A DNA stretch of 13,248 bases from Pseudomonadota bacterium. Its GTDB lineage: Bacteria; Desulfobacterota; Desulfarculia; Adiutricales; JAGVGV01. The notes beneath the pieces are model-generated. The model saw nothing but the letters and a program-made list of their open reading frames with translations. It made no database searches and was not told the DNA's origin. Position 1 is the stretch's first letter; the number at the start of each line of letters is the position of its first letter. Shown one piece after another: positions 2,390 to 2,935 of the stretch. The stretch covers positions 1-13,248 of the forward strand of contig JAHJTB010000007.1 of assembly GCA_018830135.1 (NCBI GenBank). Direction: 5' to 3'. The position numbers and the translations under genes are program-made.

Positions 2390-2935
2390 GGTTTTTTCCA
2401 GGTCATCGAGCTGCGTCTGGATTGACACGGCCGCGCTTTCCGCGGCTTGTCTGGCCATCCTGGCTTCCTCGGCCAGAACCGTCAGCTCCTCGTTCTTTTT
2501 TTTCTGGTCGCGCAACAGCTCGTCCCGCGTAGGCTGGGTCAATAAATGCTTTCGGGCTTCAATAAACCGGGGTGAAAATGATAATGGCGCATCACTGATA
2601 TACCGGAAAGCCGAGATTGTCATCGACGTGCCACTGGAGTGGTCTGGTTCAAGAAAATCAAAAAATCGCTCCGCGCTTCGGGGCGGCCGGACGGTCCGCG
2701 CGTAGGCAAAATCCATCCGCAGCCCGGATCGGCCGTTTTTCCTTTCAACGCGGAAAGCGATATCGACGCCTGCTTCCTTATCGAGTCCGCAGCGCACCAG
2801 TTCCGAAAATATCACGGTCAGCCGGGTCGCGTGGATGGGGTCGTATCCCAGGGCCTGCGTAAGTTCAAGGACTTTGCGCCTGGCAGTCGTCAAGGATTGC
2901 GGCGCATCGACCTTCAGACGACCAAACTCGATCAT
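89..2935 (-). CDS. Hybrid sensor histidine kinase HK1: RsbT-like degenerate N-terminal domain, coiled coil, HisKA, HATPase_c, REC, REC, HPt, C-terminal tail
   Basis: 948-aa ORF. ATG 2935-2933 overlaps the upstream phosphatase stop in an ATGA (2932-2935). Landmarks read from the translation: H-box SHEIRTPMN (His216, nt 2288-2290); N-box [11 protein letters not shown]1 DSGIGM; G2 GGTGLGL. REC1 has DD459/460, Asp507 in LVLTDWQMP (nt 1415-1417) and Lys560. REC2 has ED607/608, Asp651 in VVLMDVQMP (nt 983-985) and Lys703. HPt is [12 protein letters not shown] (His801, nt 533-535). No TM segment is seen, so the protein is predicted cytoplasmic. Confidence 0.95.

Follow-up and report, generated by a model that had tools for sequence, protein, structure and literature searches.

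Stressosomes occur in many phyla and, to our knowledge, their signalling is understood only for the pairing of RsbT with RsbU_N in Bacillus, Listeria and Moorella. When RsbT binds RsbU_N and its linker, activation proceeds by way of a coiled coil. This coiled-coil logic is exchangeable among PPM phosphatases, kinases and GGDEF cyclases, an 'exchangeable toolkit' in the words of Ho and Bradshaw (PMC12143880). In most proteins encoded downstream of rsbRSTX, RsbU_N cannot be detected (PMC9237108). In Vibrio vulnificus, a two-hybrid assay gave no signal between RsbT and VvD1, and RsbT-RsbS and RsbT-RsbR were missed by the same assay as well (PMC9237108).

The window analysed here, a stretch of 13,248 nucleotides, contains an rsbR-S-T-X operon followed by a gene for a hybrid histidine kinase, HK1. 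Judged from profile homology and structural modelling, the N-terminal domain of HK1 is a catalytically dead, RsbT-related GHKL domain. We call this domain and its family psiT. A literature search for a prior description of an RsbT-like pseudokinase domain returned nothing relevant.

The rsbRSTX-HK1 Operon

All genes of the operon run on the minus strand and overlap or abut. The RsbT-like kinase lies two genes upstream of HK1, as the sequence-only reading of this DNA had placed it:

4444-5253, minus strand: rsbR-like sensor with PAS and STAS domains (Pfam PAS_4 and STAS; STAS half similar to NCBIfam YtvA_fam)
3960-4436, minus strand: rsbS-like single STAS protein (Pfam STAS)
3519-3935, minus strand: rsbT-like Ser/Thr kinase of 138 aa (Pfam HATPase_c_2, E 3e-13; AlphaFold2 model and Foldseek point to SpoIIAB/RsbW)
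2932-3531, minus strand: rsbX-like PP2C feedback phosphatase of 199 aa (Pfam SpoIIE, E 6e-11)
89-2935, minus strand: HK1 hybrid histidine kinase, whole gene (Pfam HisKA, HATPase_c, two REC and Hpt)
89..2434, minus strand: HK1 transmitter (HisKA 206-271, intact HATPase_c 319-433, two REC, Hpt)

By Pfam domains and motifs, a stressosome module consisting of RsbR (sensor plus STAS), RsbS, an active-type RsbT and RsbX is thus encoded in one operon. The RsbT-like kinase has an intact N box (E49, N53), G1 (D83-x-G85-x-G87) and G2 (G106-x-G108), all of them invariant columns in the RsbT alignment A2. The start codon of HK1 overlaps the stop codon of rsbX in the sequence ATGA. HK1 has the full set of hybrid histidine kinase parts, namely a HisKA domain (E 4e-23) with the phospho-His H216 within SHEIRTP (nt 2288-2290), an intact HATPase_c (E 9e-30), two copies of Response_reg (E 2e-53) and Hpt (E 4e-11).

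Homology of the HK1 N-Terminal Domain to RsbT

The psiT family was gathered by exhaustive phmmer search; its profile comprises 61 members, and conservation columns were counted over 76 members. When the psiT family was aligned with the RsbT family by hhalign, homology was found at 96% (E 2e-9) across 93-97 columns in a +4 register. The unrelated controls RsbX, RsbS, DHp and REC gave 0.5% or less, and the related histidine kinase CA domain gave a weak match of 8% (E 0.004) that was in register. The psiT HMM matches RsbT proteins directly with up to 42 bits, over positions 6-78. The b1-a1-a2 half is the best-kept RsbT-like part of psiT, and G[FY] and SEL are anchors conserved family-wide.

Direct pairwise similarity between HK1 and RsbT is not above chance. 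BLASTP of the HK1 domain against the neighbouring RsbT gave nothing at E <= 100, and the Smith-Waterman score lay at the shuffle mean (p 0.6; shuffle tests overall p 0.2-0.6). The sequence-only reading had started from an ungapped alignment of 46 residues, 6 of them identical, that scores 5 under BLOSUM62; 22% of shuffles reach the score of the best 46-mer taken over all registers. Its +4 register is upheld by the profile-profile alignment, but its pairwise score is no better than that of shuffled sequences. The quoted strings are present in the proteins and the range of RsbT aa 8-53 was right, but the HK1 part spans aa 4-49, not 4-46.

No Pfam or NCBIfam model covering the psiT domain was found, and Pfam HATPase_c_2 matched 0/61 members at E <= 10. 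A word-indexed protein search with HK1 1-144 had no match, and a profile search through the word index retrieved 9 fragments only. The best match in a PDB sequence-profile search was the WalK CA domain (3sl2), in register and not significant (E 0.38). A match to Rab11-FIP3 in the same search was spurious and reflects a coiled coil on the linker motif. Pfam RsbU_N did not match HK1 1-173 or any of the 61 members at E <= 10, and the structural model is alpha/beta, which speaks against the RsbU_N-like helical domain that had been named as an alternative. The domain is unannotated, and the psiT family may be both previously unrecognised and widespread.

Fold and Loss of the ATP Site

The AlphaFold2 model of the psiT domain is confident (pLDDT 91.7) and has an alpha/beta fold. 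Its 16 best Foldseek neighbours in the PDB are all RsbW, SpoIIAB or UsfX, with E values down to 9e-5 and TM scores of 0.70-0.82 normalised to the target. The AlphaFold2 model of RsbT has the same PDB neighbours and an identical order of secondary-structure elements (b1-a1-a2-b2-b3-...-a3-b4-b5). In the psiT core these elements are b1 (2-9), a1 (12-28), a2 (33-48), b2 (57-66), b3 (69-78), a loop (79-85), a3 (86-90), b4 (94-98) and b5 (105-112). Profile homology, predicted fold and structural neighbours thus agree with the earlier proposal that the HK1 N-terminal domain is a dead GHKL domain derived from RsbT. Its parts are:

2582..2935, minus strand: psiT domain core, HK1 aa 1-118, RsbT-like GHKL fold without ATP site
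2873..2881, minus strand: basic pair R19-(R20)-K21 of helix a1 (R19 57/76, K21 69/76)
2789..2806, minus strand: N-box helix remnant S44-E45-L46-V47-R48-C49, matching RsbT S48-E49-L50-A51-T52-N53 (hhalign)
2657..2665, minus strand: F91-F92-D93 motif of helix a3, equivalent to RsbT I115-M116-D117 (hhalign) and to the 'F box' part of kinase CA domains

The N-box remnant retains Ser and Glu (S44 in 65/76 members, E45 in 61/76). Position 49, which is the Mg-ATP Asn in RsbT, is Cys in HK1 and Leu, Pro, Ile or others in the family, with no conserved Asn among the 76 members. Neither a DxGxG nor a GxGxG motif occurs among psiT family members. According to the two AlphaFold2 models, the 25-residue segment of RsbT that holds G1, the ATP lid and G2 (RsbT 84-108) is swapped in psiT for the 7-residue loop 79-85, and hhalign places an 18-residue gap in psiT opposite RsbT D83-S100. 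With no N-box Asn and a short loop in place of the G1/ATP-lid/G2 region, psiT is predicted to be unable to bind ATP.

The claim that the ATP determinants are lost thus stood for the N-box Asn, G1 and G2, in HK1 as well as in the family. The first two aligned segments also kept their register, with G30-Y31 equal to G34-F35, S44-E45-L46 to S48-E49-L50, C49 to N53 and G71-L72 to G76-L77. The third segment, in which 17 residues of HK1 had been paired with TDHFSSGDSLGLGLPSVKRI (PDHSS versus TDHFSS), was misregistered as judged by hhalign and both AlphaFold models, and therefore the pairing of G2 with SMTISA was wrong. The right register near this segment pairs HK1 RFFDFLE with RsbT RIMDEFE in helix a3, and a stretch of 11 residues of HK1 with the 11 residues of RsbT's last strand (hhalign and AlphaFold models).

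Conserved surface residues of psiT are R19, K21, R38, S44, E45, R48 and the FFD motif. Among residues of surface type, R19 and K21 of helix a1 show the highest conservation in the family; they match the ARQK of RsbT proteins that are paired with RsbU_N, whereas RsbT proteins partnered with psiT carry Val/Ile there. F92 is invariant in the psiT alignment A1 and present in 67/76 members from the loci, and the FFD motif also aligns weakly to the WalK CA domain 3sl2.

Genomic Context of psiT

Loci were found by scanning genomes with the RsbT alignment, and psiT was then sought locally. The 80 loci obtained are those of the closest relatives of the window's RsbT, and 78 of them were informative. 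In 75 of the 78 (~15 phyla), a psiT gene lies downstream of rsbT and shares its strand, a proportion that describes the RsbT clade of the window and not all stressosomes because the loci were chosen as closest RsbT relatives. The psiT gene begins 543-819 nt past rsbT, mostly 575-620, which equals one rsbX length. The phyletic survey that the sequence-only reading had suggested thus found the domain next to rsbRSTX. In the reverse look-up, 7/8 psiT proteins directly follow rsbRSTX; around the eighth, the kinase P0066, there are no rsb genes out to 5 kb.

The exceptions are the loci L048, L071 and L079, at least two of which (L048 and L071) have an RsbU_N-HisKA_3 kinase instead, with RsbU_N readily detected. 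Across loci, psiT and RsbU_N exclude each other. psiT proteins are also encoded where RsbR is globin-coupled. Locus L085 has an rsbRSTX-kinase-REC-HD arrangement with a psiT kinase, and the RsbT of locus L086 carries a fused STAS domain. Since the domain heads the protein right after rsbR-S-T-X in nearly all of these loci, it probably supplies the missing connection from these stressosomes to their outputs. Operon adjacency speaks for functional coupling, not for the identity of the ligand.

Output Proteins and Linker

psiT is fused in modular fashion to different effectors: the 65 downstream psiT proteins include 45 histidine kinases, 10 PP2C phosphatases and 7 class III cyclases, and RsbU_N was found in 0/65. 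Stand-alone psiT proteins of ~150 aa, considered as a class of their own, proved to be the front halves of psiT-cyclase genes that are broken into two ORFs (three loci).

The domain is joined to the transmitter of HK1 by a helical linker:

2435..2581, minus strand: linker, HK1 aa 119-167, with helix a4 and then a conserved motif that opens the long helix to the DHp

The motif reads P-[ST]-R-E-E-L-L-x-x-L-x-x-K-N-x-E-L and corresponds to 17 residues of HK1 (nt 2483-2533). The AlphaFold2 model has linker helices at 122-133 and 137-150, and aa 168 marks the boundary of homology between HK1 and HK2. The linker is heptad-quantised: in 60/72 kinases psiT and the phospho-His are 16, 23, 30, 37, 58 or 65 residues apart (7n+2).

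Proposed Role of psiT

We propose that psiT could be the module that links the adjacent RsbR-RsbS-RsbT-RsbX stressosome to control of the kinase, and that it may hold the position which the unrelated four-helix RsbU_N has in Bacillus-type systems. Upon stress, RsbT would phosphorylate the STAS scaffold and then depart. Free RsbT could bind psiT, most simply as a heterodimer inherited from the usual self-association of the family. This binding would alter how the coiled-coil linker between psiT and the DHp packs, or how rigid it is, and would so switch the REC-Hpt phosphorelay and the autophosphorylation of H216. Considering the homology, the model and the analogy with RsbU_N, we give about an even chance to psiT taking in released RsbT and working via the coiled coil; that RsbT is the ligand, how it binds and in which direction it acts are all inferred. 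More tentatively, and with somewhat less than an even chance, a pseudokinase family born from RsbT could be the general receiver for non-Bacillus stressosomes. An RsbT:psiT heterodimer, derived from an ancestral homodimer, would then set the coiled-coil register for kinases, PP2C phosphatases and cyclases, and helix a1 of RsbT (Arg/Lys versus Val/Ile) would be the determinant of specificity for RsbU_N or psiT.

Alternatively, psiT may dock directly on the RsbR/RsbS STAS scaffold, with the kinase being sequestered and released or competing with RsbT for sites, which we consider unlikely. The b1-a1-a2 half that is best kept (HMM match 6-78) carries conserved basic residues on a1 (R19, K21) and a2 (R38), and in SpoIIAB-SpoIIAA complexes the a1 arginine R20 of SpoIIAB contacts the STAS partner. 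The RsbT-STAS fusion in L086 is also consistent with docking, as it would make freely diffusing RsbT unlikely at that locus. However, psiT is without the ATP lid and the G1/G2 region, which faces the phosphorylatable STAS serine in solved SpoIIAB-SpoIIAA complexes. An RsbX and a catalytically intact RsbT are still encoded at every locus; therefore the output of the partner switch should still be 'free RsbT', which needs a reader. Moreover, psiT is mutually exclusive with a domain that binds RsbT and not STAS proteins.

It is likewise improbable that psiT has no stable RsbT-binding function and instead caps the coiled coil, as a structural or constitutively dimerising element, or is a transient target of RsbT phosphorylation. 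SpoIIAB and RsbW kinases are dimers, and therefore a dead copy from this kinase family could simply dimerise, but a plain dimerisation cap leaves unexplained both the strict placement after rsbRSTX and the replacement by RsbU_N in the exception loci. Transient RsbT-dependent phosphorylation of downstream kinases was suggested by Heinz et al. after no binding between RsbT and VvD1 was seen (PMC9237108), and psiT proteins do have conserved Ser/Thr residues (S44; the S/T of P-S-R-E-E-L in 66/76). Yet P-S-x-x-E lies at the N-terminal end of a predicted helix and resembles a common helix capping box, and phosphorylation is not required to account for its conservation. As a phosphosite, the conserved Ser in P-S-R-E-E-L is unproven, and a role as helix N-cap explains it.

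Lastly, it is highly improbable that the resemblance to RsbT reflects chance or convergence of an unrelated alpha/beta fold: although BLASTP was empty, shuffles were not significant, HATPase_c_2 matched no member and the PDB profile search reached only a kinase CA domain, the hhalign match with its clean negative controls, the HMM scores of RsbT proteins, the identical element order and a Foldseek top 16 of anti-sigma GHKL kinases only (TM up to 0.82, target-normalised) argue against it.

If psiT indeed receives RsbT, it would extend the 'exchangeable toolkit' idea (PMC12143880) to a second, non-homologous module that faces RsbT, and it would be a clean bacterial case in which a pseudoenzyme paralogue has been taken over to serve as a regulatory input. 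For direct experiments it offers a defined domain of ~120 residues with a confident model, a conserved surface and a heptad-locked linker. With it, annotation pipelines could recognise stressosome outputs among proteins now called 'response regulator/hybrid kinase', by the hundreds.

Comparison with Known Systems

With RsbT, RsbW and SpoIIAB (HATPase_c_2, GHKL), psiT shares the fold, the order of elements and profile-level homology. Retained features are the G[FY] turn that joins a1 to a2, the S-E-L with which the N-box helix begins and, in a3, the hydrophobic x-x-D. Unlike these kinases, it is without the N-box Asn, G1 and G2, and its lid segment is shortened to a 7-residue loop. They are free proteins of ~135 aa, whereas psiT is fused N-terminally to effectors via a coiled coil. 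A degenerate anti-sigma kinase that uses the HATPase_c_2 fold as a binding module is UsfX of M. tuberculosis, which is among the top structural neighbours of psiT and regulates through binding, not phosphorylation. UsfX differs in being a free anti-sigma factor with a sigma factor and STAS antagonists as its binding partners, while psiT is a fused input in stressosome operons from which the lid is gone.

By gene arrangement, the psiT locus L085 matches V. vulnificus VvD1/VvD2, where rsbRSTX is followed by a hybrid sensor kinase of ~1065 aa without RsbU_N and by a REC-HD-type regulator (PMC9237108, PMC10014275); the likeness is one of arrangement. RsbU_N (PF08673), known from RsbU, MtG and NreB-like kinases, has a fold unrelated to psiT, a four-helix bundle versus an alpha/beta GHKL sandwich, and psiT is instead a paralogue of the ligand RsbT itself. 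Binding of RsbT is demonstrated for RsbU_N, and we infer it for psiT. Still, both domains are found in the first gene after rsbX or rsbT, both are N-terminal ahead of a helical linker to a dimeric effector (PMC12143880, PMC9237108), and they share a range of effectors that includes PP2C phosphatases and kinases.

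Gene Layout of the Window

The window encodes the following features:

8959-13209, minus strand, multi-sensor protein (1416 aa)
8416-8943, minus strand, V4R protein, directly upstream of HK2
5666-8410, minus strand, HK2 hybrid kinase
4444-5253, minus strand, rsbR-like gene (PAS+STAS)
3960-4436, minus strand, rsbS-like gene (STAS)
3519-3935, minus strand, rsbT-like HATPase_c_2 kinase gene
3855-3869, minus strand, RsbT helix a1 segment (RsbT aa 23-27)
2932-3531, minus strand, rsbX-like gene (PP2C)
89-2935, minus strand, HK1 hybrid kinase with HisKA (206-271), HATPase_c (319-433), two REC and Hpt

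The start codon of HK1 shares bases with the rsbX stop codon (ATGA).

A Catalytically Dead RsbT-Related Domain in HK1

HK1 residues 1-173 had no match in Pfam, even at E ≤ 10, or in NCBIfam. We searched 1.84 billion cluster representatives exhaustively with phmmer (E ≤ 1e-3) and obtained 90 proteins of 127-1078 aa (best E 1.5e-27), nearly all of which match over residues 1-143 at their extreme N-terminus. We refer to this domain as psiT (core HK1 aa 1-118). Neither Pfam (2025 copy) nor NCBIfam (June 2026) has a model that covers it, and the source databases list these sequences as ‘response regulator’ or ‘hybrid sensor histidine kinase’.

The sequence-only reading regarded this N-terminus as a dead copy of RsbT. 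The peptides it quoted are present in the sequence, but the first spans HK1 aa 4-49 and not 4-46. The pairwise similarity has no significance: the 46 ungapped residues share six identities (BLOSUM62 score 5), 22% of shuffles reach the top 46-mer score over all registers, the Smith–Waterman score equals the shuffle mean, and BLASTP of HK1 against RsbT gave no match at E ≤ 100. The relationship is real, but such evidence is unable to establish it. Profile-profile comparison with hhalign of the psiT alignment (HK1 1-151 plus 60 phmmer matches) and an alignment of 36 RsbT proteins placed HK1 21-117 on RsbT 25-138 with 96.2% probability (E 2.1e-9), which was reproduced in a second local run. As controls, the catalytic ATPase (CA) domain of histidine kinases reached 8% (E 0.004, weakly in register) and the RsbX, RsbS, DHp and REC families 0.5% or less. 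The psiT HMM scored up to 42 bits on RsbT proteins over HMM positions 6-77, and the psiT profile found no anti-sigma kinase in the PDB at E ≤ 10. To the extent that the profile finds RsbTs and no such kinase, RsbT appears to be a closer relative of psiT than SpoIIAB or RsbW are.

The profile alignment has the same +4 register as the earlier pairwise one (HK1/RsbT G30-Y31/G34-F35, S44-E45-L46/S48-E49-L50, C49/N53 and G71-L72/G76-L77). After strand b3, psiT has an 18-residue gap opposite RsbT D83-S100, past which HK1 RFFDFLE aligns with RsbT RIMDEFE, followed by 11-residue segments of both proteins. Therefore, a third parallel proposed earlier (PDHSS with TDHFSS, and G2 with SMTISA) was misregistered.

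An AlphaFold2 model on the psiT alignment (pLDDT 91.7, pTM 0.84) contains b1 (2-9), a1 (12-28), a2 (33-48), b2 (57-66), b3 (69-78), a3 (86-90), b4 (94-98) and b5 (105-112), and in HK1 the core is followed by modelled helices at 122-133 and 137-150. The top 16 Foldseek matches in the PDB were only RsbW (6m36, 6m37), SpoIIAB (1tid, 1th8, 1til, 1l0o) and UsfX (8ih8, 8jzt), with a best E of 9e-5 and a target-normalised TM of up to 0.82, ahead of kinase CA domains. By sequence the PDB holds no RsbT structure, the closest solved relative being SpoIIAB. We modelled the RsbT of the window as a control (pLDDT 90.6) and obtained the same PDB neighbours. Its elements are b1 (4-13), a1 (16-32), a2 (37-57), b2 (62-71), b3 (74-83), a lid region (84-108), a3 (109-115), b4 (118-124) and b5 (128-136). 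Every element is common to both models in the same order, whereas the 25-residue G1/lid/G2 segment of RsbT corresponds to a 7-residue loop (79-85) in psiT.

In the 76 operon-linked psiT members the column aligned with the N-box Asn is occupied by L, P, I and other residues, and Gly-rich motifs are absent. Conserved core positions of these members are L4, G5, R19, K21, L29, G30, I34, R38, S44, E45, R48, L72, F91, F92, D93 and L113-P114-D115, followed by the linker motif P-[ST]-R-E-E-L-L-x-x-L-x-x-K-N-x-E-L. Since profile homology, fold and loss of the ATP motifs agree, there is good support for assigning the HK1 N-terminus to a GHKL domain that is related to RsbT and catalytically dead.

Genomic Context of psiT

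We scanned 185,579 species genomes with the RsbT alignment, which yielded 376 loci, and searched the six-frame ORFs of the best 80 with the psiT HMM. This phyletic survey, which the sequence-only reading had proposed, found a strong N-terminal psiT domain after rsbT and on the same strand in 75 of the best 80 loci (E 1e-12 to 1e-54), mostly starting 575-620 nt past the rsbT end, which is one rsbX length. Two contigs were too short to tell, and psiT is absent from three loci whose flanks are complete (L048, L071, L079). At the psiT position, L048 and L071 encode a protein with RsbU_N, the known RsbT-binding domain of Bacillus-type outputs, plus HisKA_3 and HATPase_c, followed by a REC-GerE regulator. 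As the window RsbT has its nearest relatives in these 80 loci, the psiT frequency is valid for this clade and not for Bacillus-type systems.

Carriers are labelled Desulfobacterota, Myxococcota, Fibrobacterota, Spirochaetota, Bacillota, Bacteroidota, Ignavibacteria, Acidobacteriota, Planctomycetota, Cyanobacteria, Alpha- and Gammaproteobacteria, Bdellovibrionota, Vulcanimicrobiota and one Thermoplasmatota MAG. The rsbT and psiT genes on the contig of this archaeal MAG (L045:5036-7214) were either acquired horizontally by the archaeon or result from a binning error. In a reverse look-up, seven of eight psiT proteins lay directly behind rsbR-S-T-X. The exception, P0066 (L089:2788-5955), is a 1055-aa psiT-PAS-kinase with no STAS, RsbT or RsbX gene within 5 kb, an orphan that is possibly served in trans.

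Several loci vary the layout. Stand-alone psiT forms of ~150 aa were rejected as a class of their own, as they are front halves of split psiT-cyclase genes. L081:3514-7015, L082:682-4122 and L084:3515-7014 encode a globin-coupled RsbR (Protoglobin+STAS), RsbS and an RsbT-RsbX fusion protein, with psiT and a class III cyclase annotated as two ORFs that overlap or adjoin, probably through an assembly frameshift or a real split gene. L086:2059-6931 encodes two STAS proteins, a STAS-HATPase_c_2 fusion (RsbS/RsbT-like) and RsbX; next come P0035, a kinase in which psiT occurs twice in tandem, a single REC and a member of the KaiB family. In L088 (6368-7486) a REC + HATPase_c protein directly 3' of psiT kinase P0079 resembles the REC-RsbW-like regulators (TciR) of Vogesella (PMC12826045).

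The 1416-aa protein of the window combines Peripla_BP_4, two SBP_bac_3, PAS, PocR and PAS domains without an output domain, and carries the motif ERFNRLxxGRExxxIxLKxxINxL behind each PAS (10267-10356 and 8989-9078, minus strand). In P0005 this motif and a V4R domain follow a psiT domain within one protein. This fusion of V4R to psiT-PAS suggests that the V4R/HK2 and stressosome/HK1 branches form one network. The gene set of L085 repeats that of the window: sensor, rsbRSTX, psiT kinase, REC-HD, V4R and kinase.

Effectors and Linker

Among 65 downstream psiT proteins, HisKA occurs in 45, REC in 35 and Hpt in 32; 10 are SpoIIE/PP2C phosphatases and 7 class III cyclases. A PAS domain is inserted in ~17 of the 65, and RsbU_N occurs in none of them. 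In 72 kinases with psiT joined directly to DHp, we measured the linker from psiT HMM position 151 to the phospho-His. It is 16, 23, 30, 37, 58 or 65 residues long (7n+2) in 60 kinases and 41 or 62 (7n+6) in nine; in HK1 it has 65 residues, with H216 as phospho-His. Many of these sequences are related to each other, but a length range of 16 to 65 residues that keeps to one heptad phase still indicates that a continuous coiled coil connects psiT to the catalytic core.

From aa 168 of HK1 to its end (778 residues), HK1 and HK2 share 84% identity. The N-terminal 135 residues of HK2 differ, being helical with a weak Pfam HAMP match (E 7e-4). From these sequences, the pair looks like a recent duplication with a natural input-module swap exactly at the coiled-coil linker.

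Proposed Role of psiT

The best-supported reading is that psiT takes the place of RsbU_N without being homologous to it and would receive free RsbT, since both modules occupy the same position in the operon and in the protein, are mutually exclusive and serve a comparable range of effectors (for psiT kinases, PP2C phosphatases and, in addition, class III cyclases), and since the psiT linker is phase-locked and helical. As psiT is an RsbT paralogue, the simplest route would be an RsbT:psiT heterodimer, inherited from self-association of the ancestral kinase. Helix a1 of psiT keeps R19 and K21, matching AARQKGR of the three RsbTs taken as RsbU_N-partnered (L048, L071 and, presumably, L079); 76 psiT-partnered RsbTs have Val/Ile in place of the first Arg of this motif and a variable residue in place of the Lys. 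It is on these three RsbTs that the psiT HMM scores best (38-42 bits vs 16 for the window RsbT). These positions could mark a recognition helix, but with three such loci the pattern may reflect lineage only.

psiT could also dock directly on the STAS scaffold, the other option of the sequence-only reading, as its best-conserved half is the RsbT-like b1-a1-a2 face. However, psiT has lost the lid region, active RsbT plus RsbX is universally kept, and the mutual exclusion with RsbU_N also argues against it. Alternatively, psiT may serve as a passive cap for dimerisation or be a target of phosphorylation. In Vibrio vulnificus a two-hybrid assay of RsbT with the downstream protein VvD1 was negative, but this is weak evidence because the same assay missed RsbT-RsbS and RsbT-RsbR (PMC9237108). 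A chance resemblance of psiT to RsbT is effectively excluded.

Our full-text literature search found no description of psiT, and an earlier mention is possible in the 2005 and 2017 surveys of Pané-Farré et al., which lay outside that search. A 2022 paper from this group treated the input of these downstream kinases as unknown. Where RsbT binds RsbU_N and its linker, activation proceeds through a coiled coil; GGDEF cyclases and some kinases encoded beside rsbT also carry the RsbU_N module (PMC12143880). Most proteins downstream of rsbRSTX, including VvD1, lack it, and for such outputs only transient phosphorylation was suggested (Heinz et al.; PMC9237108). We rate psiT as a probable stressosome-to-output coupling module that is built on a pseudokinase paralogue in place of RsbU_N.
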